A stretch of 64,000 nucleotides of DNA from Isurus oxyrinchus. Lineage: Eukaryota. The notes under the pieces were generated by a model that ran no database searches, was not told the origin of the DNA, and saw only the letters and a program-made list of their open reading frames with translations. Both the position numbers and the translations under genes were made by a program. The first letter of the stretch is position 1. Each line of letters opens with the position of its first letter. Below are positions 4,960-64,000 of the stretch, in pieces. The stretch is from the NCBI GenBank assembly GCA_026770705.1, contig JANJGN010000009.1:27032001-27096000 (forward strand), written 5' to 3'.

Positions 4960-5400
4960 CCCCCTGGTGACTGTCTGTTTGAAATCATATAATCCTGAAA
5001 TCATATAACCCTGAGACATTGTTAGATTGCCTACTACCACCTGTGGGTGATCATTCTTCATGTGACTCTAGATGGTGTGTATTAGCAGGCTCTTTGATTG
5101 TAGTGGAGAAACATCACAGCAAAGCTGTCCTTACTTGACGACATCTAGATTTGTACTTTCTACCAGTAGTTACTGGATTACATTCAGTGATAGGAATCCT
5201 GGTTCTGTCGAAGGGTCATGAAGACTCGAAACGTCAACTCTTTTCTTCTCCGCCGATGCTGCCAGACCTGCTGAGTTTTTCCAGGTAATTCTGTTTTTGT
5301 TTTAAATATTTTTAAACCCTGTCTCTGCATGAAGGACACCAGTACCCATCTGTGGTCCCAAAACCTTTGTGCAACTGACATCAGCTCTGTGCTTAACTAA
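4960..5400 (-). mobile_element. Ancient tRNA-type SINE (AmnSINE2-like), interrupted by a Penelope terminal insert
   Basis: Similar to 47020-47340 (+), 51140-51365 (-) and 61065-61325 (+); family name from recalled consensus only. Confidence 0.4.
5202..5303 (+). mobile_element. Young solo Penelope terminal fragment with hammerhead motif (tailless)
   Basis: 101/102 identical to 62562-62663; homologous to the element 3' end at 29189-29286. Confidence 0.85.
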
Positions 5401-9732: not shown

Positions 9733-9886
9733 AGATGACCCCTCTGAGATGACCCCTCTGAGATGACCCCTCTGAGATGACCCCTCTGAGATGACCCCTC
9801 TGAGATGACCCCTCTGAGATGACCCCTCTGAGATGACCCCTCTGAGATGACCCCTCTGAGATGACCCCTCTGAGATGACCCCTCTG
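9733..9886. repeat. Perfect minisatellite (AGATGACCCCTCTG) x11
   Basis: Eleven identical 14-bp units with no spacers. Confidence 0.97.
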
Positions 9887-10945
9887 ATCTTTGGCTATGT
9901 GAGAAATTGTGAAAACACATATATTTTGGCACTCTAGAGCAAGCATGTCACTAATGCACAAAAGGTTAATTTTTGTTTTGAGGGTTGAAGGTCAATAAAT
10001 ACATCACTCTTATCTATCCATAATGGTATTGGTGAGCCTGCCAAGCTAACTACAGCTATAATTTCAATTTCTTTGTGCACCAAACTTGTTATCAGTAATC
10101 TTAAGCTGGGACTCTGTCCAATTCCCATGGTGGAACAGAAATTCAATTTATAAGTAATTCAGTATACAATTATTAATATATAATTTGCTGCATAATTTGT
10201 GGAGGCTAGAGCACTTCAATGCCTTGGATCTGAATGAACTATAGATCTTGTTTAAAAGGGGCAAAAATCCCTTATTCACTGGTTTACTGTTGAGTATTAT
10301 GCCACGAGTAATGTACAATGTAATTAAACTCATTTGTATTCTGTACTATTGCTACATCAATTATATTTTAATCTGGATTATTTTAAAGTGCAAGGTGTTT
10401 TAAACCCTAATGGATCCAGGGAATTTAAGGACCATCTTCAGATTTCAGCTTATACCATGACCTTAAACCAAGCCTTTAATATCATGGTATTAAAGATGAG
10501 AAAAATAGATATGTTACATATCCTTCATGCAACAGACATTTTCCCTTTATTTCTGCCACTTCCCCTTTATTTAATGTTATTAATCCTGAACTGTGAGCAA
10601 TATTGTTCACAATTAGCCTGTAATTACTTGTAGCTTTTCCAATTACTTGAAGGAGTATGTTAAATTTACCAGACCAATCTTTTGAGTGCACCCCTGTTGG
10701 ATGATGTAACTTTATTTTGCTGTTGTCTGTGTCGTTTGGGTTGCTGGCAAGTTGTCTTTGTAACATTCAATGTCCTGCTCATGCATTGCAGGCAAAATGC
10801 ATTTGATTTCTCGCCAGAATCTTTGTCTGCCATCTTCAAAATCTCACTGCAGTGGACGATAGTTGGAAATCATGTGCACTAACAGTTCCAGCATCCATAC
10901 CTTTTTAATCATTTGTTATGTCAGAACTTCAAGTTTCTGGTTTTA

Positions 10946-17194: not shown

Positions 17195-17333
17195 TAGGTG
17201 GAGGCAAAGGAGAGATTGCCAAAGATGTCATGTCATGGATAAAGGATTGTTAATATAGTAATACTGGCTAAAGTGGGTACTGATGGTGGCATCAAGGTCA
17301 GAATGTGATAATGGCAGGACAAGAGTAAGCACT
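17195..17333 (-). mobile_element. Inverted Penelope terminal-repeat fragment abutting the 5' end of the next element
   Basis: Reverse complement agtgcttactcttgtcctgccattatcacattct... matches 18481-18555. Confidence 0.7.
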
Positions 17334-17334
17334 T

Positions 17335-18706
17335 AATTCCTGGTGATAGACTGTCCACCACTATTTACTACAAGCTGACCAATTCCCACAGTTCCCTAGA
17401 CTACACTCCTCACACCCTGCCTCCTGTAAGGACTCCATTCCATTCTTGGTTCCTTTGCCTCTGTCGCATCTATTCCAATGTTACCACTTTCCAAAATGGT
17501 GCTTCTGACATGTCTTCCTCCTTCAATCGAGGTTTCCCACCCACTGTGGTTGACGGGGCCCTCAACTGTATCTGACGCATCTACTGTGCCTCTGCCCTCA
17601 CACTTTCCTATCCCTCCTAGAACCATGATAGGGTCCCCCTTGTCCTCACTTTTCACCCCACCAGCCTCCGCATTCAAAGGATCATCCTTCACCATTTCTG
17701 CCAACTCCAGCATAATGCCACCACCAAACACATCTTCCCCTCACTGCACCCCCCTACCCCCGTCAGCATTTCATAGGGACCATTCCCTCTGGGACACCCT
17801 GGTCCACTCCTCCATCGCCCCCAACACCTCATCTCCCTCCCATGGCACCTTCCCATGCAATTGCAGAAGGTGCAGCACCTGTCGCTTTACCACCTCCCCT
17901 CCTCACCATCCAATGGCCCAAACACCCCTTTCTGGTGAAATAGTGCTTCACTTGCACCTCCTTAAATTTGATCTACTGCATTTCCTGCTCCCAATGCAGT
18001 CTTCTCTACATTGGAGAGACAAAACGCAGACTGGGTGATCAATTTGCGGAACATCTTTGGTCTGTCTGCAAGCATGACCCGGACCTTCCGGTGGCTTGCC
18101 ATTTCAACACTCCACCCTGCTCTCATGCCCACATGTCTGTCCTTGGCCTGCTGCAATGTTGCAGTGAAGCTCAACACAAACTGGAGAAACAGCACCTCAT
18201 CTTCCGACTAGGCACTTTACAGCCTTCCGGACTTAACATTGAGTTCAACAACTTCAGATCATGAATTCTCTCCTCCACCCTTACCCCTTCTTGTTTTTAC
18301 CCCCTTTTTTAATATTCTTTCTCATTTCTTAATTTTTTATTCACTTATTTTTATTTTCATTTTTATTCATTGTTTTATCCCCACCTTTTATCCTATTTTC
18401 AATCTTTTTTTCCCCCACCACTGTCCCCTTCCCCCACCCCACAAGGACCATCTGTCATTTGTTCATGTTGCTCTTTCCAGAGTGCTTACCTTTGTCCTGC
18501 TATTATCACATTCTACTTTCTGATCTTAATACCACCATCAGCACCTCCTTCACCTGTTCCACCCCCTTAGACAGTATAAACTTCATTACATTTTTACTTC
18601 TCTCTAGCTCTGAAGAAGAGTCTTAAGGACTCGAAACAACTCCTGTTTTTTTTCTCTCCATAGATGCAGCTAGGCCTGAGTTTTTCCAGCATTTTCTATT
18701 TTTGTT
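17335..18706 (+). mobile_element. Penelope-like element, lineage A (Neptune-type), 5'-truncated and frameshifted
   Basis: Cys linker TFPCNCRRCSTC; GIY-YIG IYCISCSQCSLLYIGETKRRLGDQFAEH...LGTLQPSGLNIEF; terminal hammerhead motif. Confidence 0.9.
18606..18642 (+). ncRNA. Hammerhead motif lacking its cleavage triplet
   Basis: CTGAAGA-A-gagtc-ttaag-gactc-GAAAC-aactc; 3 nt missing relative to gaaacgtcaactc in other copies. Confidence 0.6.
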
Positions 18707-18984
18707 GCGGAATTATTTGTTCACTTGGGCAGGTGGACCATATACTCTGAAGCTTGTTCTGTCTACAAGGATGGGAGGTGAAATGAGGCAAATGTAGTTT
18801 AGAATTCTTGGCTCAATGCACAAAATGGTTGGTTCTTTTACTGCACACTTTGATTCCATAGAGGAGTGGGACTAGTTGAGTAGCTCTTGGAGAGAGCTGG
18901 CACAGATTTGATTGGTTACAGCACAGAAGAAGGAGGTTATTCAACCTTTCAATTATCATTGCCAATGTCATAGTTGGGGTCCGA

Positions 18985-25838: not shown

Positions 25839-26798
25839 TGTGTTCTAGGTGTAAGCAAAAGTTATAACAACTAATCTGAATGGTCTTGTGTGCCAGGATG
25901 AACCAGTAGTTAACACTACCTGAAGGTTATATCATGTCTTAACCTTGGTGCTTCTGTGCGCTCAATACTTCATATGCAAAGAGCGCATGAGCTGAAATAA
26001 TAAAATGAAATAAAAAGGTTCATGGCAGCAGACATTGAGCTCTGATCAAAATACCAAAAGCCATTAATGGCCTTGATACTTCTATCAATCAGATAATCAT
26101 TTCAATTTTTATTATCTAATGTGTGACAGGCTGAAGACAAATAAATTGAACTTTTTGCATGACCAGATCAGTGGTTACAGATTGCTAAATAAATAGGAAA
26201 ACAGGGCCCTCTGGAGAAACGGACTATTGACTTAGGGGTTCTGTAGACAATGAATACTTTGGCCTATAGTACAGACTTTTGTCTCCCTGTATGTATTCAA
26301 TAATGGATGTGCATGTGTTATCCATCCTGGGCTGTAAATAATAGCTAAATTGATCCCTTTTAATTTGTTTTAAAGAAATGATAGACTCAAGTCTCTTGCT
26401 AAATTGATGAGCATTAGATTAGCTTATGGGGAGAATGACCAATTGTCTAACCCACAGGCAAGTCCCAACATCCCACTCCCCACTATCCTCAAGCTCTCAC
26501 CAGGACTGCATGTTGCTCAATAATTCACCATCTCCATTGAACATAAGGAAAAGGAAGCTTTTGTTGTTGAAGTGCCAATCATTTCTCTCTCAACAACTCA
26601 AAGCACAAAATGTACAGCAAATTATTTGTAATGCACCAACTGTTATGGTAGGCAATTGGATTAGCCATTTCACACTCAGTGAGACCTCTCAAATCTGGTT
26701 TTGTTGACACTGGTTGAGGAAGGTTTTAGGCTGCGTGTTTGGAGCTCTTGATATAAACATTCCCTCTTAGGTTGCTGCAAAACAGCATAGCTAAAAGT

Positions 26799-28424
26799 AA
26801 AAATAAAAATACCTGGAAAATCTCAGTAAGTCTGACAGCATCTGCGGGGAAGAACACAATTAACGTTTCAAGTCCGTATGACTCTTCAACAGAACTAAGG
26901 AAAATGAGAAGAGAAGTGAAATATAAGCTGGTTTAAGGGGGGGGGGTGGGCCAAGTAGAGCTGGATAATGGATCAGTGATAGGTGGAGATAGCCAAAAGA
27001 TGTCTTGGACAAAAAAGGACAAAGAGGTGTTGACGGTGGTGAGATTATCTAAGGAATGTGCTAATTGGTGACATTAAGGATAGAAAGCAGGACGAGCAAG
27101 GTACAGACAGCCCTAGTGGGGTGGGAGGAAGGGATCGAAATAGGCTAAAAGGTAGAGATAAAACAATGGATGGAAATACATTTAAAAATTATGGAAATTG
27201 ATAGGAAAATAAAAATCTATATAAATTATTGGAAAAAATGGGGTGGGGATGGAGGATAGAGTTCATGATCTAAAATTGTTGAACTCAATATTCAGTTCAT
27301 AAGGCTGTAAAGTGCCTAGTCGGAAGATGAGGTGCTGTTCCTCCAGTTTGTGTTGAGCTTCACTGGAACATTGCAGCAGGCCACAGGCCAAGGACAGACA
27401 TTTGGGCATGAGAGCAGGGTGGAGTGTTGAAATGGCAAGCAACAGGGAGGTCTGGGTCATGCTTGCAGACAAACCGAAGGTGTTCCGCAAAGCGGTCATT
27501 CAGTCTGCATTTGGTCTCTCCAATGTAGAGGAAACCGCATTGGGAGCAGTGAATGCATTAGACTAAATTGAGGGAAATGCCAGTGAAATGCTGCTTCACT
27601 TGAAAGGAGTGTTTGGGCCCTTGGACGGTGAGGAGAGGGGAAGTAAAGGGGCAGGTGTTGCATCTTCTGCAGTTGCATGAGAATGTGCCATGGGAGGGGG
27701 TTGAGGTGTAGGGGGTGATGGAGGAGTGGACCAGTGTGTCCCAGAGGGAATGATCCCTGCGTAATGCCACCAGGGGATGAAGGGCAGATGTGTTTGGTGG
27801 TGGCATCATGCTGGAGTTGGCGGAAATGGTGGAGGATGATCCTTTGAATGTGGAGGCTGTTGGGTTGATAAGTGAGGACAAGGGGGACAACGTCATGGTT
27901 CTGGGAGGGAGAGGAAGGTGTGAGGGCAGATGCGTGAGAGATGGGCCGGACGCGGTTGAGGGCCCTGTCAACCACCATGAGTGGAAAAGCTCGGTTAAGG
28001 AAGAAGGAATACATGTCAGAGAAACTGTTTTTGCAAGTGGTATCATCAGAACAGATGTGACAGAGGTGAAGGAACTGAGAGAATAGGATGGAGTCCTTAC
28101 AGGAAGCGGGGTGTGAGGAGTTGTAGTCGAGTGGGAGTCGGTAGGCTTGTAATGAATATTGCTGGACAGTCTATCACCAGAAATTGAGACAGAGGTCAAG
28201 GAAGGGATGGGAAATGTCAGAGATGGACCATGTGAAAATGATGGAAGGGTGGAAATTGGAAGCAAAATTAATAAATTTTTCCAAGTCCAGACGAGAGCAT
28301 GAAGCAGCACCGAAGCAATCATCGATGTACTGGAGAAAGAGTTGTGGGAAGAGGCTGGAGTAGAACTGGAACAAGGAATGTTCCACGTACCCCATAAAGA
28401 GACAGGCATAACTGGGGCCCATGC
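26799..28424 (-). mobile_element. Penelope-like element lineage A, left arm (RT core, GIY-YIG and terminus)
   Basis: MGPSYACLFMGYVE...LQYIDDCFG (RT YIDD motif); CNCRRCNTC linker; LEEQHLIFRLGTLQP. Confidence 0.93.
26859..26895 (-). ncRNA. Minimal hammerhead motif, variant core
   Basis: Minus strand: gtt-CTGTTGA-A-gagtc-atacg-gactt-GAAA-cg-TT-aat. Confidence 0.55.
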
Positions 28425-29327
28425 CGCTTTACTTCCCCTCTCCTCACCGTCCAAGGGCCCAAACACTCCTTTCAAGTGAAGCAGCATTTCACTTGCACTT
28501 CCCTCAATTTAGTCTAATGCATTTGCTCCTAATGCGGTTTCCTCTACATTGGAGAGACCAAATGCAGATTGGGTTACCACTTTGCGGAACACCTTCGGTC
28601 TGTTCGCAAGCATGACCCAGACCTCCCTGTCCCTTGCCATTTCAACACTCCACCCTGCACTCATGCCCACATGTCTGTCCTTGGCTTGCTGCATTGTTCC
28701 AGTGAAGCTCAACACAAACTGGAGGAACAGCACCTCATCTTCTGACTAGGCACTTTACAGCCTTATGAACTGAATATTGAGTTCAACAATTTTAGATTAC
28801 GAACTCTCTCCTCCATCCCCACCCCCTTTCCAATCTCCCTTTTTTCCAATAATTTATATAGATTTTTCTTTTCCCACCTATTTCCATTATTTTTAAATAT
28901 ATTTCCATCCATTGTTTTATCTCTACCTTTTAGCCTATTTCAATCTCTTCCCCCCAACCCATCCCCACTAGGGCTGTCTGTACCTTGCTCGTCCTGCTTT
29001 CTACCCTTAATGTCACCAATTAGCACATTCCTTAGATAATCTCACCACCGTCAACACCTTTGTCCTTTTTGTCTATGACATCTTTTGGCTATCTCCACCT
29101 ATCACTGGCCCTCTATCCAGCTCTACTTGGTCTCCCCACCCCCACCCCCAAACCAGTTTATATTTCATCTCTCTTCTATTTTTCCTTAGTTCTGTTGAAG
29201 AGTCATACGGACTCGAAACGTTAACGGTGTTCCTCTCAGCAGAATGCTGTCAGACCTGCTGAGATTTTCCAGGTATTTTCATTTTTGTTTTCGATTTCCA
29301 GCATCCGCAGTTTTTTGCTTTTATTTT
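28422..29327 (+). mobile_element. Penelope-like element lineage A, right arm (GIY-YIG, terminus and 41-nt tail)
   Basis: Inverted copy of 26799-27653; ends at the TSD agcatagctaaaagt. Confidence 0.92.
29189..29225 (+). ncRNA. Minimal hammerhead motif, variant core
   Basis: gtt-CTGTTGA-A-gagtc-atacg-gactc-GAAA-cg-TT-aac; stems I and II pair. Confidence 0.65.
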
Positions 29328-29544
29328 AGCATAGCTAAAAGTCCTGTACAGGCAGTGCACGAGCCGCCCCCTTTTTAAGTTACTGACCCTGCACATTCGT
29401 GCAAAAAAAAAAAATTCAAGGCCTAATGTCAATGGCCCCTTCAGACAAACTAGTGCAAAACCATTCCTAGTCGCGAAGGACCTTGCAGGCTCTCTTTTTT
29501 TCCTACTTTCCTCTAAATTTACAGTTCATGAATATAAGCTGTTT

Positions 29545-30891: not shown

Positions 30892-31943
30892 CAAGTTTAG
30901 TTCTAATAATTGTGTCAGCTGACATCAGTTTGCTATAGTATAATGGCTGACTATATATTCCAGTGATTTGTCTTGCTAAGCCACAAGGAGAGCTGCACTT
31001 GCAGTTCTAACTGGGGGTTTGCTGTTGCAACTGTTTGAATTCAGGTTTGTGAATTGAATTTCTTTGATAGAGGCTGTGTTTGCTTCAACTCCAATCACCA
31101 TTGTTACTGCCCTCTGTCATGGCCATGAAGCTGCACCACGAGACAGAGCTGATGTATTTCAGAGGTTTTACAAGTCAGTGCAATGCATTGGATTTGTTCC
31201 TCCTTCTCAGACAGGCAGATACGGAGAGAAATGCTGTGATGGATTGATCTCCCTGAAGCTATGAGCTTGACTCCTTGAATCTGCCACATTTTTTTTAGAA
31301 ATTCCTGAAGTTAGTTAGTGTGAGAAGAATTACAATGCCAGTACTAAATGTGATTTTTTTTAATCAGTGATTTTTAAAAAGCACAGCTGTTTTGTATTAG
31401 ACTGTTACGTCAATGATGAAGGGTCTGAAATCTCTCTGCAAAAGTAATCGTGATTGAAAGAAAGCTGTGGGGAAGGAGCAGGGGAGTGTGGGACTATTTA
31501 GATCGCTCTGCAAAAGAGTCGGCAAGGGCAGAGTTTTCAGAATGACATCCTTCTGTGCTGAATTATTAAATGGAGGGGTGAAACTTATCTTGGGCAGTAA
31601 CGAAAAATGGGTGATAGAGAATTGGCACTTTTCTTCAGTTGGGTGGATGTATAACAATGGTTAGTTATCAGGTCAAGTGTAAAATGGACTGCTGATTCTC
31701 TCGTCCGCTATGCACTAATGCCCAAGACAGATTTCGTCCCCATAGCGTTTGTGTCCCCACTCTGTTCCTCAATTATGCTGCCAACTCTCTGCTACTGTAA
31801 TTTGAGTGTAACTGGCCTATTACTATATGTGCATTGTTATGTTGCTGGCCTTGTACCAGACCAGTCTGGAACTGATTATTAGCTGTGCTTTGGTTCAAAA
31901 TTTCTTCAATTAATGGTTGAGTGTTTATTGAACAAAACGAACC

Positions 31944-32133
31944 TAAAATAAAATCAAAATTCTGCAGATGCTGGAAAACTGAAATAAAAGCTGGGAAAAC
32001 TCAGCTGGGAAAACTCTGGCAGATCTCTGCAGAGAGTAACACAGTTAATGTTTAGAATCTAATATGGCTCCTCTTTGAACAGATACTGCCAGATCTAAGT
32101 TTTCTTTCCCAGCAATTTGTTTTTATTTATTTT
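31944..32133. mobile_element. Miniature tail-out pair of Penelope termini with 9-bp TSD
   Basis: AAACGAACC at 31935-31943 and 32134-32142; left arm is a minus-strand terminus with tail and decayed hammerhead, right arm a plus-strand tailless terminus. Confidence 0.7.
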
Positions 32134-39369: not shown

Positions 39370-42230
39370 AGTAAATCTGGAGAGATGGTGCAGGAGGGAG
39401 GGTGTTAGATTCCTGGGACATTGGGACTATTTCTGGGGGAGGCGCGACCTGTGCAAGTTGGATGGGTTATATCTGAACAGGACCAACATCCTTGTGAGGA
39501 GGCTTGCTGATGCTTTTGGGGTGGATTTAAACTAAATTAGCAGGGGGATGGAATCCTGAAAAGTAGCTCAGGAGAAGAGAAGCCAAGATGGAATTAGAAG
39601 TTAAAACACTAAGTGAGTCTGGAAGGCAGAGAAAACAGGCTAGGTAAGAAAGAAGTGAGTTTAGCAAAGCTAAATAAAATATATTTTAATGCAAGGGGCC
39701 TGAGGAATAAGACAGGCTAGCTGAGGGCACAGACAGGCGTGTGGGAGTATGATATCATAGCTGAGACTCAGGCTGGCTAAAAGAAGGGCAGTATTGGCAA
39801 TTCAGCGTTCCTGATTATAGGGTATTCAGACGAGATAGGAAGGGGGATAGAAGAGGAGGGGGTTTGCAATATTAATCAAGTCAAGGAATCAATTATAGCA
39901 GTGCAGAGGAATGATATCTTGGAAGGATCATCAATGAGGCCATATGGGTAGAAGTAAAAACACAAAGGGAAAACATGCCGTTGGGTGTGTACTATAGGCC
40001 CCCAAACAGGTAGAGATGGAGGATCAAATATGTAACCAAATTTCAGAGAAGTGTAAGAATAATGCAGTAATAGGGGATTTTAACTACCCAAATATTAACT
40101 GGGAAAGTTTTAGTGTGCAAGGTAAGGAGGGAGCAAAATTCTTAAGCTGCATCCAGGAGAACTTTTTTAACCAGTATGGAGACAGTCCAACAAGGGAGGG
40201 GGCAGGTCTGGACCTAATATTTAGAAATGAACCCGGGCAAGTGGAAGGCGTATCAGTAGGGGAGCATTTTGGAGATGGTGACCATAACTCAGTTAGATTT
40301 AGGATAGTTGTGGAAAAGGATAAAGTTGGGCTGGGAGTAAAAGTTCTAAACTGGGGAAAGGCTAATTTTACTAAAATGAGATACGATTTGGCCCAAGTGG
40401 ACTGGGAGCAGCTATTTGCAGATGAAACTGTCAGAGCAGTGGGAGGCATTCCAGGAGGAAATAACGAGAGTACAGGGCAATTATGTTCTCATAAAGACAA
40501 AAAGGGGGACCAAGTCCGGAGAACCCTTGATGTCAAAAGACATAAAGGTTAGGATTAAGAAAAAAGAGAAGCTTATGGTAGATACCAAGGGCTCAATATA
40601 GGAGAGTCCCTAGAGGAGTATAAAAAGTGCAGGGGGAACTTAAAAGGAAATTAGAAAAGCTAAGAGTGCATGAGACAGCATTGGTGGGTAGAATAAAGGA
40701 AAACCCAAAGGGGTTTCTTTAAATATAAGGAGCAAGAGAATAACTGGGGAAAGAGTAGGGCCAATTAGGGACCATAGAGGTAATCTGTGCATGGACCCAG
40801 AAGACATGGGTACGGTCCTCAATGAACATCAGTCCTCACAATGGATAAGGACGATGCAGGTATAGACATCAGGGTGGAGGACTGTGAAATATTAGAGCAA
40901 ATTAACATAGAGGAGGCACTAACAGGTTTAGCGTCCTCTAAAAGTAGATAAATCCGCTGGCTCGGGTGTGATGTATCCCAGGTTGTTAAGGGAGGCAAGA
41001 GAAGAGGTATCGGGCCTTGTCAGTAATTTTCAAATCCCCTCTGGCCACAGGTGAGCTGCCAAAGGACTTGAGGGCTGCCAATGTCCTTCCATTATTAAAA
41101 ACGGGAGGAAGGGATAGACCAGAAAATCACAGGCCAGTCAGTTTAACCTCAGTGTTGGGGAAGTTACTGGAAAGAATTCTGAGGGACAGAATGTATCTGC
41201 ACCTGAAGAAACAGTAATTAATCAGCTAGCCAGCATAGATATATTAAGGGAAGGTCGTGTTTGACAAATTTGATCAATTTTTTTGAGGAGGTAACTCAGT
41301 GTTGATGAGGGCATATGGGATACTTGTTTTCTATGCGTCAGCTAATAAAGGCATGAGTAGGAGATTATGCTGGAACTGTATAAAACACTGGTTAGGCCAC
41401 AACTAGAGTACTGCATGCAGTTCTGGTCACCACATTATAGGAAGGATGCGATTGCACTGGAGAGGGTGCGGAGGAGATTTACCAGGGAGTGAAAACTGGT
41501 TTTATTAAAATGTTAAATAACCGACATTGCAGTCAATGCATTTGATGTGGTATACATGGACTTAAGCAAGGCTTTTGATAGGGTCCCTCATGGCAGACTG
41601 GTCAAAAAAAGAAAGCCCATGGGATCCAAGGCAAAGTGGCACATAGGATCCAAAATTAGCTGAGGGGCAGGAAGCAGAGGGTGATGGTAGAGGGATGTTT
41701 TTGTGACTGGGAGTCTGTTTCCAGTGGGGTTCTGTAGGCTTGTTGCTGGGTCCCTTGTTTGTGGTGTACACAAACAATTTGGACTTAATGTAGGGGGTAC
41801 GATCAAGAAATTGTGGATGACACGAAAATTGCTAGGATGGTAAATAGTGAGGAGGATATCGATGGACTGGTCAGGTGGGCAGAGCAGTGACAAATGGAAT
41901 TCAACCTAGAAAAGTGTAGAGGTAGTGCACTTGGGGAGGGTTAACAAGGCAAGGAATTACACTATGAATGGTAGGACCCTGGAAAGTACTAAAGATCAGA
42001 GGGACCTTGGTGTACATATCCACAAATCCCTGAAGGTAGCAGGCAGTGAAGAAGGCATATGGGATACTTGTTTTCTATGCGTCAGCTAATAAAGGCATGA
42101 GTAGGAGATTATGCTGGAACTGTATAAAACACTGGTTAGGCCACAACTAGAGTACTGCATGCAGTTCTGGTCACCACATTATAGGAAGGATGCGATTGCA
42201 CTGGAGAGGGTGCGGAGGAGATTTACCAGG
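39370..42230 (+). mobile_element. CR1 LINE (ORF1 end, endonuclease, RT), decayed, 3'-truncated at the rearrangement junction
   Basis: VIGDFNYPNINW...PTREGAGLDLI...GDGDHN; ANVLPLLK...RPVSLTS; ends at gatttaccagg. Confidence 0.92.
41310..41536 (+). repeat. 227-bp direct duplicate of 42054-42280 inserted into the CR1 RT
   Basis: Apparently identical, offset 744 bp; interrupts gatgagggc|aatgcatttgat. Confidence 0.93.
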
Positions 42231-43215
42231 GAGTGAAAACTGGTTTTATTAAAATGTTAAATAACCGACATTGCAGTCAAGAAGTTAATCTGAAGCAGAA
42301 TGTCGGTTTGCAGTCAAGAAGTTAATCTGAAGCAGAAACAACTGCGACCACTAGCATTTTAACAGTTATCATTGTTGAAAATATGCACCATTAGAAAAAA
42401 GATAACCTAAATGAAGATGTAACCCTTTGGAAATATTACCATTTAGTTCATAGTTTTTTTCCTGCCAAGTGGGACATGGTTAAAAACTAAGTTAGGAAGT
42501 TAGAAATTTAAACAAGATGGAATTTTACTTCCCACCCAAAAGACAAGGAGGAATGGGTTACCAGGCATGGCTGTTGAAGCGGACAGGCTGCATGGCTCCA
42601 AACAGAGGTTGTTAGAACACTTTGAAAAGAAAACTGGATCTTCAAAAGAGAGCCAGTTGGCTTGTTCAGAATAGTGTTGTGCGGCAATTACACATGGTGG
42701 GTTATTCAGTACACACGATTTAATGATAAATATATACAAGTACACAGTGTGTACCCATCATGTCACTGGGATCATTGCATTCATTTGCTTTGAAGCTCCT
42801 TCTAGAGACCGGGTCAGCACAGTTGGTTTTTTGTAACAGCATCGAAAGATACTAACAAAATTGCTAAAGAGTGCAATAAACCAAGTGCTCAAACTGAATT
42901 GATGGAGGTGGCGTAATAAGGGTAAGGGAAAAAGGAAATGACTTGCAATTTTAACTTTTAAATCTACCAAGTTTTGGATAAGGGATGTACTGTGACCTGT
43001 TGGCCCTTTTAAAAAGATGCATTTATTGGTATTTGAATTTCCTCATGTGGCACCAAAACATTTGGCATATCTTGCTACCTTGCCAATAAAGCAACCGTTG
43101 CTTTCATGCTTTTCAATAGAAGGTTGAGAGGAAATTGCAATGTCCCAAGTAGTCTAAGCCCCAGCACAAAACACCACAAATCTACCACTCACTCAACCTT
43201 CATTTCTCCTTCATC
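42229..43215 (-). repeat. Left arm of 987-bp inverted duplication
   Basis: Reverse complement of 45830-46816; paired coordinates sum to 89045; about 9 mismatches seen. Confidence 0.97.
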
Positions 43216-44477: not shown

Positions 44478-45830
44478 ATATTCCATGCCACGTGCTAGTG
44501 AGGCTAGAAATAGGAGGATAATGCAACTAAATATGTGGCTAAAGAGATGGTGCAGGAGTGAGGGCTTCACGTTTCTGGACAATTGGGCTCTGTTCCACGG
44601 AAGATGGGACTTGTTCCGAAGGGACGGTTTGCTAGTGCTGCTCCGGGGGGTTTAAACTAGATTTGCAGGGGGGAGGGGAACCAGAGTGTTAGAGCAGATA
44701 GTGAGGTGGAGGAGGATAAAGGTCAAGCAACATGTATAGACAGAAATCAAGGGTTTCTACGGGATTGAAATGTTCTCAGGTGCATCTATTTTAATGCAAG
44801 GTGTATTGTCGGAAAGGCAGATGAGCTTTGGGCACGTGGGATTACGACATTATTGCTATTAGTGAGACTTGGTTGCAGGAGGGGCAGGACTGGCAGCTCA
44901 ATGTTGCAAGGTTCCATTGTTTCAGACGTGACAGAGGGGGAGGGATGAAAGGGGGAGGAGTGGCATTACTAGTCAGGGAAAATATCATAGCTGTGCATAA
45001 GCAGGACAGCCCGGAGGGCTGTTCCGCAGAGGCCATATGGGTGGAGCTGAGGAACGGGAAAGGTGTGTCCACACTAATAGGGTTGTATTATAGACCGCCC
45101 GATAGTCAGAGAGAATTGGAGGAGCAAATCTGTAGAGAGATAGCAGACCGATGTAAGAAACAGAAAGTTGTGATAGTAGAAGATTTTAACTTTCCACATA
45201 TTGACTGGGACTCCCATATTGTAAAAGGGCTGGATGGCTTGGAGTTTGTCAAATGTGTTCAGGATAGTTTTCTAAATCAATATATAGAGAGGATGCAATA
45301 CTTGATCTCCTATTAGGGAACCAGACAGGTCAAGTGACAGAAGTATGTGTAGGCGAACATTTTGGGTCCAGTGACTACAATGTCATTAGTTTTAAATTAA
45401 TTATGGATAAGGATAGGTTTGGTCCTCGAGTTGAGATTCTAAATTGGAGAAAGGCCAATTTTGTGGAAATGAGAAGGGATCTAGGAAGAGTGGATTGGGA
45501 TAAGTTGTTTTCTGGCAAGGATGTGTTCAGTAAGTGGAAGGCATTCAAAGGCGAAATTTTGAGAGTGCAGAGTTACATGTTCCTTAAAGATTAAAGACAA
45601 AGTTCAGGCATAGGGAATCTTGGTTTTCAAGGGATATTGGCGATCTGGTTAAGAAGAAGAGAGAGGTGTATAGCAGGTATAGGCAACAAGGAGCAAATGA
45701 GGTACTTGTAGAGTATAGAAAATGTAAGAAAATACTAAAGAAGGAAATCAGGAAGGCAAAAAGACGACATGAGGTTGCTTTGGCAGATAATGTGAAGGTA
45801 AACCCAAAGGGTTTCTACAAATATATTAAG
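44478..45830 (+). mobile_element. CR1 LINE (ORF1 end, endonuclease, linker), truncated at the right inverted-repeat arm
   Basis: YDIIAISETW...RRDR..GGGVALLV...GLYYRPP...DFNFPHIDW. Confidence 0.92.
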
Positions 45831-46816
45831 ATGAAGGAGAAATGAAGGTTGAGTGAGTGGTAGATTTGTGATGTTTTGTGCTGGGGCTTAAACTACTTGG
45901 GACGTTGCAATTTCCTCTCAACCTTCTATTGAAAAGCATGAAAGCAACGGTTGCTTTATTGGCAAGGTAGCAAGATATGCCAAATGTTTTGGTGCCACAT
46001 GAGGAAATTCAAATACCAATAAATGCATCTTTTTAAAAGGGCCAACAGGCCACAGTACATCCCTTATCTAAAACTTGGTAGATTTAAAAGTTAAAATTGC
46101 AAGTCATTTCCTTTTTCCCTTACCCTTATCACGCCACCTCCATCAATTCAGTTTGAGCACTTGGTTTATTGCACTCTTTAGCAATTTTGTTAGTATCTTT
46201 CGATGCTGTTACAAAAAACCAACTGTGCTGACCCGGTCTCTAGAAGGAGCTTCAAAGCGAATGAATGCAATGATCCCAGTGACATGATGGGTACACACTG
46301 TGTACTTGTATATATTTATCATTAAATCGTGTGTACTGAATAACCCACCATGTGTAATTGCCGCACAACACTATTCTGAACAAGCCAACTGGCTCTCTTT
46401 TGAAGATCCAGTTTTCTTTTCAAAGTGTTCTAACAACCTCTGTTTGGAGCCATGCAGCCTGTCCGCTTCAACAGCCATGCCTGGTAACCCATTCCTCCTT
46501 GTCTTTTGGGTGGGAAGTAAAATTCCATCTTGTTTAAATTTCTAACTTCCTAACTTAGTTTTTAACCATGTCCCACTTGGCAGGAAAAAAACTATGAACT
46601 AAATGGTAATATTTCCAAAGGGTTACATCTTCATTTAGGTTACTTTTTTTCTAATGGTGCATATTTTCAACAATGATAACTGTTAAAATGCTAGTGGTCG
46701 CAGTTGTTTCTGCTTCAGATTAACTTCTTGACTGCAAACCGACATTCTGCTTCAGATTAACTTCTTGACTGCAATGTCGGTTATTTAACATTTTAATAAA
46801 ACCAGTTTTCACTCCC
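45830..46816 (+). repeat. Right arm of 987-bp inverted duplication
   Basis: Reverse complement of 42229-43215. Confidence 0.97.
46426..46483 (+). other. Candidate host exon (58 nt)
   Basis: Acceptor gttttcttttcaaag, donor CTG|gtaacc; two gccATG contexts (46452, 46477); open in two frames. Confidence 0.45.
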
Positions 46817-47606: not shown

Positions 47607-47714
47607 GGAAATTGGATGGAGGTCTATGGAGCTGGAAATTGGATGGAGGTCTGTGGAGCTGGAAATTGGATGGAGGTCTGTGGAGCTGGAAATTGGATGG
47701 AGGTCTATGGAGCT
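47607..47714. repeat. Minisatellite, 27-bp unit x4
   Basis: ggaaattggatggaggtct(a/g)tggagct, variant order a,g,g,a. Confidence 0.95.
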
Positions 47715-58030: not shown

Positions 58031-61000
58031 TAATTATGATTGGCAATGACACTAGTCCCAGTCTGGCTTGTGAAGCCCATCTCAACAGAATAGCTCACTC
58101 TTTGAGTACTGATGCCAGTTGAACAAATCATTTGGACGATGTTGATGAAGGTAATAAGGAACTCAGCTCCAGTATTGAAAAATTCCAAAGCCGTCCAATC
58201 TCTGGGCAATAAAAAGGTGGGAATGTGGGAGAGTAAAAAGATTGGGGGAATAAAATGGGTTATAATAGGCCTGGTGGTAATGTACACAGATCAATACAAG
58301 CTCTGCTTTTAATATGAAAAATTGATAAACATGTCAGTCTCTCATTTTATACAATTTCATTTTACTGGTTTTTACTGGTCTATTCTTGATTTGAAGTTGG
58401 GTCTTTCAAATTTCTGAATTTTTTTTCTGGACATTTGAAAACCCAGGTATTTACCAAAAGAATGAAGCCACAAGGTTCACTGTTTAAAACCAAAGAATTT
58501 TACTGGACAAAAATCAAAGAGCATGAATACTAATAAGTACACTCTGCCTTAAATTGTCAGGTACATTTTAAAGATATTAAAAGTACGATGAATGCAGTCA
58601 CTTTTAGAAGTTCTAAACCGAACTTCTTCATTACTCAATTTTCTTCTACGCCCATTTGACTGACACCCCCACCGCACTTAAAAAAAAACAAGCCTGATTC
58701 TTATCAGAAATTGGAAGATTAACCATATGGTCTAAGTAAATTTTCAAAGATTCATATACGGGTTGATATTTCCTGGGCATTCTACATACATTTGGTAATG
58801 TTGTCCCTTCAAATGTCTCTAACTGTCCCAAGGTTGTAGACTCCCTGTTTAACACAGGTCTGGCTAACGTCTGAAGCGTAGCCACCATGGGTCAGAACTC
58901 TCCTCTCCTGTTCTAATGGGCTAACTCTGAAACCTTGCATCTAGTCTCTCTCTCTACTTTCTTTTAAAATTGCTTGGTCACATGATCAGTTACTGGCCCC
59001 GAGTTACTTTTTTTTTACAGGAAATCCATCTTATCGAGAAACCTAGTTCTGAAAAGGACCATCATCCAACATAAAACATAGGCTTTCCACCAAAAGCACA
59101 TGGACCATCACCACTTTTTAAAGAATGCTACTTTAATTACATTGGTTAATTTCTGTCACTGCATGAGTTTTTTTGGACCAAAATAACAACAATGAATTGT
59201 CAAAAGTAGACTGCACTTGGTGAGTTCAGTGAATCTATTTAGATAAATTGGAACTCCACAGGATTTGGTATTTAGTGCTTTGCTACCAGTACACTTTTGG
59301 GAACATCGCCCTTAGTGTCAATATGCTGCATCTCATGTGATATTCTTAATTCATCTTCACAAATTACCCTGGCCAATTGCCCTCCATGATGTTGGATTTC
59401 ACTCTATCATTCTTATTCCAAATGCTCTCTGCAGATGTAAACATACTGCTGGGTGTTTTTTTTATCCACAATTTTAGTGGATGATTGCACAACTATGTAC
59501 CCACAAGTACGCTGTACTAAAATGATAATGCTAGTGTTTAAACGTAGTCCTCAGTTCTACACTCAAATGTTTTTTTTTGCACAATTAAGTGTGTGTAAAG
59601 AGCTACAGTAGGGTTATAGGCAAAATAAGGCCGTGTAGTTTGATTTAAAAGGCCTCTATAGTTTAAGGAACATAGGCCAGGAGTAGCCCATTAAGCCCCT
59701 TGATGAGATCATGGCTGATTTTGAAGCTAGAGCCCATATTGTGGAGTAAAAAGTTTTTAAATTGGACTCCATAATCGTCAACATAGTGTAAGATAGATGG
59801 CACAGGTGGCTTGTGCATAAAGGTGGCTTCCCTCTCCCGGTTGTGGCCCATGTACATGTAAAGGCCTGTACTGGAAACTCCTGACTTTTCCCTTTAATGA
59901 AAATCTGTTTCTGAGGCAGAGCTATTCCAACATCTATAGCTGTAATTAAAAGGCCTCTATTGTAATCATTTTAATAAAGATGATAATTAAAGTGGTTTCT
60001 AAAATAGTCCTGCTTTCATTGCTGCAAGAGGAGGCAAAGCTCATTGCTAGCTGGACTTCAAAGAAAAAAAAGTGCTGAAAATATACCTGGAAAGCAGGAT
60101 GACTTGAAGGAGTGTGCAAATAATGTAGCCCTGTAACAGACCCAGATTGCTGCTATAACCCTGTTTATGTTTTGGACACAAGAATTTGAATTTAAACCAT
60201 GTTGATAGCATCATAGTGTAGCTTCTTCACTTTGGAATCGTATGGCACAAAAATTCCTCTGTGTAACAGTGATTCCTTGAAGCCTTTAGGGTCAAGAACA
60301 TATGAAATTTTGAAGGGTGTTGAGCTGATTTTTTTTCAGAATCAAGCAATGGTTCCTAAAATTGAACTCTAACAAAAATATCTGTCTGTCGATCTACATT
60401 TTCTACAGTATAATGTTAGAGTAAAATTAAGAAATCGGCTTATGTACAGAAACTTACAGACATTTGTTGTGCTAATTCTATGGGCTCACTGATGCAAACC
60501 CTCAAACGTTTTCCTCCCTCCCTGCCCACCACGATATAAATCTTGTCCTCTGAGAGACAGCCCCTACAAAATGAAAGGGTCTGGTTAACTATTTGGTAAC
60601 GGCGCAATGATAAAACTTGATCCAAATACAGGCAAGTTATAATTTTTAAAATGGCCAGCCTTACTAAAACTATTTTTAACAAAGCCACTTCAGTCAAATA
60701 CATGACGTGGCAAAAACAAGTGGTCTGTAAAGCTCTTAATGCACCTTTTTATCATTAGTCAATTGATGAGGTTAAATGATTGGGTTAGATAAAGAAAACA
60801 TGTTTACTTGACAAGTTATTTTTTGTTTCCTGCCCAGCTCCCCTTTGAGATGGAGGTCTACTATATCCAACACATCACGCTATATATTGTTCCAATCTAC
60901 CTGATGCAGAAAGGGGGTAAGCTTTTTAGATTTTTTAAATGTTCCAAATGACAAAATGGAATGCCAGTTTTAAATATTTGATTAATTACACATTTTGCGA

Positions 61001-61837: not shown

Positions 61838-64000
61838 TAAGACATAGGAGCAGAAGTAGGCCATTCAGCCCATTGAGTCTGCTCTGGCATTCAGTGAGAT
61901 CATGGCTGATCTGATAATCCTCAACTCCACTTTCCTGCCTTTTCTCCAAAACCCTTGATTCCCTTACTGATTTAAAAATGTCCGTCTCCACCTTGAATAT
62001 GCTCAATGACCAGCCCTCTGCAGTAAAGAATTCCACAGATTCACTACCCTCAGAAGAAATTCCTCCACATCTCGGTCTTAAATGGGTCAATCCTTACTCT
62101 GTGATTATGCCTTCTGGTCCTAGACTCTCCTAGTAAGGGAAACAACCTCTCAACATCTATCCTGCTAAGCTCCCCTAAGAATCTTATGTTTCAATAAGGT
62201 TGCCTCTCATTCTTCAAAACTCCAATGAGTACAAGCCCAACCTCTCCTCATAAGAAAATCCCTCCATACCTGGGATCAACCTAGTGAACCTTCTCTGGCT
62301 TGCCTCCAATGCCAGAAATCTTTCCTTAGATAAGAGGTCCAAAACTGTTCACAGTATTCTAGGTGTGGTCTAACTAATGCCTTGTATAGTTTTAGCAAGA
62401 CTTCTGTTTGAAATAAAGGCCAACATTCCTTTTGTCTTTTCTATTACCTGCTTGTATGTTAGCTTTTGCGGATTCATGCATGGGGATTCTCAAATCCTCT
62501 GTGCATCAGCTTTCTGCAGTCTTTATCCATTTAAATAATATTCAGCTGGACTCGAACTCAAGTTCTGTCGAAGGGTCATGAGGACTCGAAACGTCAACTC
62601 TTTTCTTCTCCGCCGATGCTGCCAGACCTGCTGAGTTTTTCCAGGTAATTCTGTTTTTGTTTTGGATTTCCAGCATCCGCAGTTTTTTTGTTTTATCCTC
62701 TATTCTTCCTGCCAAAATGCATAACCTCACATTTCCCACATTCCATCTGCCAAGTTTATGACTACTCACTCAACATGTCTATATCCCTCTGTAGACTGTC
62801 ATTCCCACCACTTGCCTTCCTGGCTATTTACGTCATCTGAAAACTTGGTGATAGTACATTCACTTCCCTCATCTAAGTATTAATATATATTATAAATAAT
62901 TGTGGCCCCAGCACTGATCCCTGTGGCACTCCACTAGTTACATGTTGCCATCCTGAAAATTGCCCCCTAATCCCAACCCTGTCTTCTATTAGTTAACCAA
63001 TTCTCTCTCCATGCTAATATACTATCCCCAACACCACGGGCTCTTAGCTTATCAAATAGCCTTATGTGCAGTACCTTATTAAATGCCTTTTGGAAATCTA
63101 AATATATTACATCTACTGGTTCACATTTTATCTATCCTGCTTGTTACCACTTCAAAGAGTTCTAATAAATTTGTCAGGCATGATTTCCCCTTCATGAAGC
63201 CATGCTGACTCTACTTGATTAGATTATGCACTTCTAAATGCTCTGCTAATACATCCTTTAAAATAGACTCTAACATTTTCCCAATGATGAATGTTAAGCC
63301 AACTGGCCTGTAGTTCTGTTTTTCTCTCTCCCTTTTTGAATAAGGGTGTTACATTGGCAGTTTTCCAATCTTGGACTTTTCCAGAATCTAAGGATACTTG
63401 GAAGATTACCAGATTATCCATTATTTGTGCAGCTATTTCCTTTAATATCCTAGGATGCAACCCATTAGGTCCAAGGAACTTATCAGCCTTTAGCCCCATT
63501 AGTTTCCCTAGTACCTTTTTTCTCTGGTGATTGTTATTGTATTTATTCCCCCCCCCCCCCACCCCCCAACCTGTTCTCTTTCCCCTTTGATTATTTAGTG
63601 TTTTTGGAATGCTATTAGTGTCTTCGACTGTGAAGACTGATGCAAAGTATTTATTCAACTCCTCTACCATTTCCTGGTTCCCCATTATTATTTCCCCAGC
63701 TTTATTCCCTAAGGAGCCTATGTTCCTTTTTATATATTTAAAAAAGCTCTTACTGTCCATTTTTATATTACCTGCTGGTTTATCCTCCAAGATTATTTTC
63801 TCCCTCTTAATTATTTTTTGATCATCTTTTGTTGGTTCTTAAAACTTTCCCAATCATCTGGCTTACCACTAATCTTTGCGACACTGTATGATTTTTGCTT
63901 TCAATTTGATACTATCCTTAACTTGATTAACCATGGTTGGTTTACCCTCCTTTTCACAGGGATATATCTTCGTTGTGAGTCATGAACTATTTTCAACGTC
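61838..64000 (-). mobile_element. CR1 LINE (linker, RT, 3' end), runs off the window
   Basis: ELNKYFASVFT...GPNGLHPRILKE...DWKTANVTPLFKKG; 3' UTR at 61838. Confidence 0.93.
62548..62696 (+). mobile_element. Young solo Penelope terminal fragment with hammerhead motif and tail, inserted in CR1
   Basis: agtt-CTGTCGA-A-gggtc-atgag-gactc-GAAA-cg-TC-aact; interrupts ttcagct|cctctattcttcc with no clear TSD. Confidence 0.88.

Follow-up and report, generated by a model that had tools for sequence, protein, structure and literature searches.

The closest described relatives of the motif analysed here are the minimal type-I hammerhead ribozymes (min-HHRs) of metazoan Penelope-like elements, which have the consensus core CUGANGAH, palindromic positions 15.2-16.2 and low activity as dimers (Cervera and de la Pena 2014, PMC4209133). 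All 56 of the 56 aligned representatives in Fig. S3 of that paper have A at position 6, the descriptor described there held the catalytic boxes fixed, and the core covariation it reports for min-HHRs is U3-A8. A hammerhead descriptor fixed on CUGANGA is also in use (PMC8557442). A pyrimidine at position 6 is known from the natural A6C hammerhead of Bcep176, which is slow yet detectably active, with a kobs of <0.1/min (Perreault 2011, PMC3088659), and is reported as slow but active in Mg2+ and good in Mn2+ (Naghdi 2020, PMC7151607). Mutants of the CUGA turn have low activity (PMC9901934). Among Penelope-like elements (PLEs), the hammerhead of PAc (Anolis Poseidon) cleaves only with protein (Frangieh 2024, PMC11167929); the same source describes this cleavage as dispensable for TPRT and insertion in vitro, and in its RNA-seq data no ends fall at the cleavage site. 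Naiad PLEs proliferate without canonical hammerheads (PMC8557442), and whether PLE hammerheads need to cut is an open question (PMC8557442, PMC11167929). Further context is given by PMC6765202 and bioRxiv 10.64898/2026.07.22.740005.

Within the window (the whole stretch of 64,000 nt that was analysed), several copies of one PLE family carry a hammerhead motif with U at position 6 (A6U, here U6). The features are as follows, with subfamilies as defined below.

28422..29324, forward strand: forward arm of a 5'-truncated PLE insertion, comprising a decayed C-terminus of the endonuclease, the 3' UTR, the hammerhead and a tail of ~100 nt
29188..29226, forward strand: minimal type-I hammerhead of subfamily F3 (U6U7, GUU site), read from the sequence
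29188-29191: stem I arm of the F3 hammerhead, followed by C3 at 29192, U6 at 29195 and the extra A at 29199
29200-29204/29210-29214: its stem II, followed by GAAA at 29215-29218 and the palindromic ACGU at 29218-29221
29222: its H17, with the predicted scissile bond at 29222/29223
26799..28424, reverse strand: inverted arm of the same insertion as 28422..29324, its hammerhead with C3 at 26892, U6 at 26889 and G.U at 10.1-11.1
26784..26798, forward strand: left 15-bp direct repeat around the inverted pair, a probable target-site duplication
29328..29342, forward strand: right 15-bp direct repeat around the inverted pair
5202..5303, forward strand: short F6 copy (the youngest subfamily; U6C7, GUC site), 99% identical to an intact unit, with C3 at 5205 and U6 at 5208
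62547..62694, forward strand: short copy of subfamily F6 (CTGTCGA, GUC site), 99% identical to an intact unit, with C3 at 62565 and U6 at 62568
17332..18714, forward strand: old copy, A6A7 with the extra A and without a GUH triplet, C3 at 18610
31943..32059, reverse strand: decayed tail of the same PLE family, its hammerhead core past recognition

The letters of 29188-29226 are AGTT CTGT T GA A GAGTC ATACG GACTC GAAA CGTT AAC, with U at position 6. The core reads CTGTYGA at 5205, 29192 and 62565 on the forward strand and at 26892 on the reverse strand; the U at position 6 that a preliminary description had reported for four copies (5202, 26859, 29189 and 62561) is thus present in all of them, as are the GAAAC-GT-H strand and the variable loop II. 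Since a single insertion accounts for both 26859 (its inverted arm) and 29189 (its forward arm), which share 89% identity, the four U6 copies represent three insertion events. The stems were described somewhat too uniformly: stem I gtt/aac is found in three of the four copies, 26859 reading AAT, and stem II is not gagtc or gggtc with gactc in 26859, where the CTGTTGA core is accompanied by GACTT (G.U at 10.1-11.1). The extra A before stem II is present but not special to young copies, since 18606 has it too and it is a published min-HHR trait. Copy 18606 has, as claimed, the canonical core CTGAAGA (at 18610; CTGAAGA-A-GAGTC, then GAAAC-AACTCC), but it has lost the GUH triplet and is not a complete hammerhead. 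All four U6 copies had been called the youngest, which suits 5202 and 62561, members of the youngest subfamily with 98-99% identity to an intact unit, but not 29189 and 26859, which fall in a middle-aged one.

The palindromic stem III and the GUU sites, although present, are published min-HHR features (PMC4209133). Of the features listed earlier, A6U alone is unusual; the extra A and the palindrome were already known. As in the min-HHRs of PMC4209133, the motif is located in pseudo-LTRs and has three stems in type-I order, a short stem I, an extra nucleotide between A9 and 10.1, G10.1-C11.1, palindromic 15.2-16.2 and an NUH site (GUC or GUU), but unlike those A6 ribozymes it has U6 as the majority state. 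Stem II is predicted to be stable in isolated motifs (P 0.87-1.0). Core position 6 is naturally a pyrimidine in the Bcep176 hammerhead too, whose activity is low yet can still be detected and which prefers Mn2+. Whereas Bcep176 is a single phage example with C6, here U (with a C side branch) is fixed in an animal retroelement lineage, and, unlike in Bcep176, stem III is of the dimer type.

An Rfam covariance-model scan of the 64-kb window gave no hammerhead match, and none was found in scans of six A6 loci (0/6) and four U6 loci (0/4). Since Rfam misses A6 and U6 alike, its miss is not attributable to U6. The suggestion that standard searches would overlook the variant is correct for the CUGANGA descriptor, which cannot match U6, but does not explain the Rfam result.

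The host unit is ~3.33 kb long, with a 926-codon ORF of RT + GIY-YIG type, and in tandem units L125 and L127 such ORFs are found intact with a U6 motif on either side. The motif stands ~400 nt past the ORF stop codon, and ~100 nt separate it from the 3' end of insertions. In a Pfam search, the ORF matched RVT_1 (E=3.4e-6, just below the curated cut-off) and the GIY-YIG domain was not found; DKG, YIG and CxxC/His motifs are present in the ORF when read by eye. As in EN+ PLEs, a single ORF combines RT with a C-terminal GIY-YIG-type endonuclease, and the further EN+ traits of pseudo-LTRs, partial tandems, inverted 5'-truncated arms and a tail were all found. The linker that joins RT to EN, CPRKRCNTC, is of the form CX4CXXC and falls within the CX2-5CxxC pattern that defines the Neptune/Nematis clades (PMC8557442). 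By these characters the host would fit the description of an EN+ PLE of Neptune/Nematis type in that paper.

As in PAc, the hammerhead lies upstream of a 'tail', genomic copies read through the cut site, and there are two 3' end positions ~35-60 nt apart. The inverted arms (L009-L060, L061-L074) mostly stop ~35-60 nt short of the 3' end of the forward arm, an offset that matches the two RT start sites ('tail') of PMC11167929. However, the PAc ORF starts within stem II, whereas here it starts ~140 nt downstream of the hammerhead, and the Neptune/Nematis-type linker (CX4CXXC) and the U at position 6 are further differences. In a tandem array of 110-nt units (L160-L174, G000:C2:5400186-5403183; 28 units listed), each unit combines the tail of the PLE with the start of its ORF and lacks the hammerhead. 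The tail also contains a GT..AG stretch of 29 nt, which was rejected as an intron, being too short and missing from the F1 majority. The ATG seen in loop II opens a frame of only 18 codons and is found in F4-F6 only.

Counted as motif matches and not as insertion events, the pattern CTGNNGAAN{8,22}CGAAACGT gave 121,984 matches in the 4.98-Gb genome, against 404 for the reversed control. A6 accounts for 11,178 of these, a figure that undercounts old A6 copies because the pattern requires an intact CpG, C/G6 for 3,611, and T6, by subtraction, for 107,195 (87.9%). T6 is found in 94/95 motif-spanning young copies (selected by their tail, among the matches listed). In contigs of organisms A, B, C and D, compared through sequences at least 80% alike (D with 11 records only), no other letter reaches the 10% level at position 6, and this uniformity makes U6 probably common to relatives. 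The 23 runs considered for RNA evidence consisted of contigs throughout, most of them merely presumed to be RNA. U6 motifs occur on both flanks of intact-ORF units. U6 is inherited from master elements, which bears out the earlier proposal of a natural core variant of recently transposing subfamilies.

Of 172 motifs, 162 were classed into subfamilies and 10 were left as 'other'. The subfamilies form a ladder: A6A7 (F1), A6U7 (F2), U6U7 (F3), C6U7 (F4) and U6U7 with GGGUC (F5), and U6C7 (F6, the youngest). Mean non-CpG divergence from the subfamily majority is 7.2, 4.8, 3.3, 3.2, 2.9 and 1.4% for F1-F6 (n = 9, 10, 32, 15, 16 and 80), in a locus sample that is not random (F3 and F6 were taken partly by query similarity, the others mostly from the start of contig C1). 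A midpoint-rooted tree built from the final 450 nt of the ORF (74 rows, 57 different) reproduces the ladder, with the A6 copies on the longest terminal branches; 9 of its 54 inner branches are strongly supported, and the bootstrap is not fully settled. Position 6 is the sole difference between the F2 and F3 motifs, thus U6 is derived. Ten of the 11 core positions are kept in all six subfamily majorities, the exception being A6, which becomes U or C in F3-F6. An older sister hammerhead has A6 and a covaried stem II, AGGTC/GACCT (e.g. G000:C1:93622655).

Among the first 100 C/G6 rows listed, C6U7 with the younger loop is found in 60 and C6C7 in 9, with G6 rows 2 and 3, and C6 is present in both arms of five inverted pairs (among the C/G6 rows listed, by eye). 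As C6U7 dominates these rows and C6 occurs in paired arms, a C6 side master is likely, with a side branch of roughly 2,000 copies. The change of position 6 to C in this branch as well suggests relaxed rather than tuned selection. The motif is genuine: a variant of the PLE minimal hammerhead already known, with A6U fixed in the lineage. PLE hammerhead variants, which may include position-6 variants, are reportedly described by Lunse et al. in 2017; titles, abstracts and term counts searched for an earlier report of U6 listed none.

The reading favoured here, which is put at about an even chance, is that the ribozyme has been slowed. Core A6 changed to U in a master element, and this U was passed to the later, most abundant subfamilies; the U6 motif likely still folds as a hammerhead and is predicted to cut slowly, as a dimer or helped by the protein of the element. 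Slow cutting is probably tolerated, since uncut RNA is what gets copied. Support comes from the slow yet detectable A6C variants, from the protein dependence of PAc cleavage and its dispensability in vitro (PMC11167929), and from the lack of ends at the cut site. It may be inferred that cleavage is reduced but non-zero, that it is assisted by dimer formation or protein, and that selection acts on the fold.

A substantial but lesser possibility is that the ribozyme has had no catalytic activity since A6U, the motif being kept as a structural, protein-binding or promoter DNA part of the pseudo-LTR, or being not yet decayed. The presence of A, U and C at position 6, the spread of Naiad PLEs without canonical hammerheads (PMC8557442) and the poor activity of CUGA-turn mutants (PMC9901934) are in keeping with such a loss, whereas the A6C variants described are still detectably active (PMC3088659, PMC7151607). 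The substitutions that accumulated after U6 bear on the same question. Between F3 and F6, both U6 (pS 0.138, pN 0.025, UTR difference 0.147), the motif changed at N7, at H17 (U to C), at two loop II bases and at 10.2, where A-U became G.U. Changes thus affect 4/7 free positions against 1/30 core or paired positions, with pairing kept (Fisher p=0.0025, a test weakened because the two loop II changes may be one event); for at most one change in the 30 constrained positions, p=0.067. Since the changes sit on positions where hammerheads tolerate them (N7, H17, loop II, a wobble) and not on the core or stems, the fold appears to be still constrained, which argues against a dead motif. However, the core alone, with 0/10 changed, is not significant (p=0.23), and the tail next to the hammerhead is similarly conserved (7/88 changed from F3 to F6), therefore the constraint may not be catalytic. 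The substitution pattern supports a retained fold rather than catalysis as such. Within the U6 subfamilies, stem covariation amounts to a single change on one side (A-U to G.U); changes on both sides, at 10.1-11.1 and 10.2-11.2, are seen only in the older A6 sister motif (few rows, by eye).

Cleaved RNA, if copied, starts at the cut site, so insertions would begin there. A junction search enriched for breakpoints within 23 nt upstream of the site gave 4,064 matches, of which the first 100 rows comprise 73 truncations, 7 internal deletions and 20 point changes. U6 junctions at 0/-1 of the cut site make up 4 of the 73 listed truncations, where ~6 are expected if uniform (by eye), and 0/15 ORF-start copies begin at the site. 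In a near-unbiased sample of young copies, 5 of the 100 listed rows are truncated inside the motif, one of them near the cut site. This lack of cleavage-defined ends in genomic copies is as expected of a dead ribozyme, but the old A6 family equally has no excess, with cut-site ends in 3-4 of 100 rows listed (by eye). The templates are continuous through the site (uncut, or re-ligated circles), before and after U6. As the A6 ancestors show no cut-site ends either, the end test cannot separate slowed from dead. A slowed ribozyme is the more likely of the two.

Among the rows listed, 5' junctions cluster at -12 and at -19 to -22 from the cut site, which are the edges of stem II, and many of those at -12 rely on microhomology to the inverted stem I arm. 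At G000:C1:34324436-34324487, a young PLE copy is truncated at its 5' side 3 nt upstream of where the cut is predicted, and (TTAGGG)n repeats are joined directly to that point. In at least 4 of 100 rows listed (e.g. G000:C1:237422247, 255968462), old A6 copies have the end of a different repeat right beside their GTTAAC palindrome, possibly a DNA element inserting there.

It is quite improbable that U6 is fully functional, that is, cleaving at least as well as the A6 form, either because protein or Mn2+ rescues it or because U6 breaks an inhibitory core helix. An A6C hammerhead does retain good activity in Mn2+ (PMC7151607), and PLE protein turns on cleavage by a canonical PLE hammerhead (PMC11167929). 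As for the helix, F6 with A restored at position 6, alongside C7 and C17, is predicted to pair its core with the cleavage strand in a 5-bp helix (-11.3 vs -7.3 kcal/mol); this predicted misfold confounds the simple U6A revertant that had been suggested as a control and makes it a poor one in F6. However, U6 arose in F3, where it gives no reduction in predicted mispairing (-9.0 vs -8.2), and canonical min-HHRs, those of Acropora and Ixodes among them, can be read with this core helix too (PMC4209133). Since C7 and C17 came later, U6 is at most permissive for them. Weighing against the favoured, slowed reading, the GAAACG strand is a predicted pairing partner of U6U7 (F3, F5; P 0.87-0.97), far less so of U6C7. 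In dimers, too, the double-hammerhead fold is 8-17 kcal/mol (family medians) less favourable than the minimum, and this holds for every subfamily, A6 included; as it is the minimum in none of them, folding energy does not discriminate.

A shifted reading of the core (UUGAAGA, which keeps A6 and has a U3.G8 wobble) is scarcely credible: UUGAAGA is present in F3 copies and UUGA cores occur in published min-HHRs (PMC4209133), but this register requires a 2-nt insertion before G12 with loss of stem I, and it was rejected because F4-F6 break it (UCGAAGG). That U6 is a post-insertion mutation or chance, for which nothing speaks beyond ordinary single-copy decay, is refuted by the 107,195 matches, by T6 in 94/95 of the young copies listed and by its being diagnostic of subfamilies.

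The recent subfamilies that have done best are altered at a core position known to matter, and a single genome holds both ancestral and derived forms as a dated series, which bears on whether cleavage was kept, reduced or lost while transposition flourished. Censuses based on CUGANGA can overlook most motifs in such a genome. A bolder case, which is rather doubtful, is that a vertebrate retroelement has rewired the core to a position-6 pyrimidine and still cleaves conditionally, switched by protein or Mn2+. If so, a variant invisible to CUGANGA would be the commonest ribozyme in this genome, with ~100,000 copies, and the dated subfamily series would record the change step by step. Should the motif be dead, the outcome is modest, namely more evidence that the ribozyme is dispensable.

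The window also contains features apart from the PLE copies. A 987-nt inverted repeat at 42229-43215 / 45830-46816, with arms 99% complementary and 2.6 kb apart, is a young element of another kind. There are tandem repeats at 9733-9887 (perfect, 14-nt) and 47607-47714 (near-perfect, 27-nt), and 58473-58532 on the reverse strand gives a weak U7 snRNA-like Rfam match (31 bits, under the gathering score of 34).
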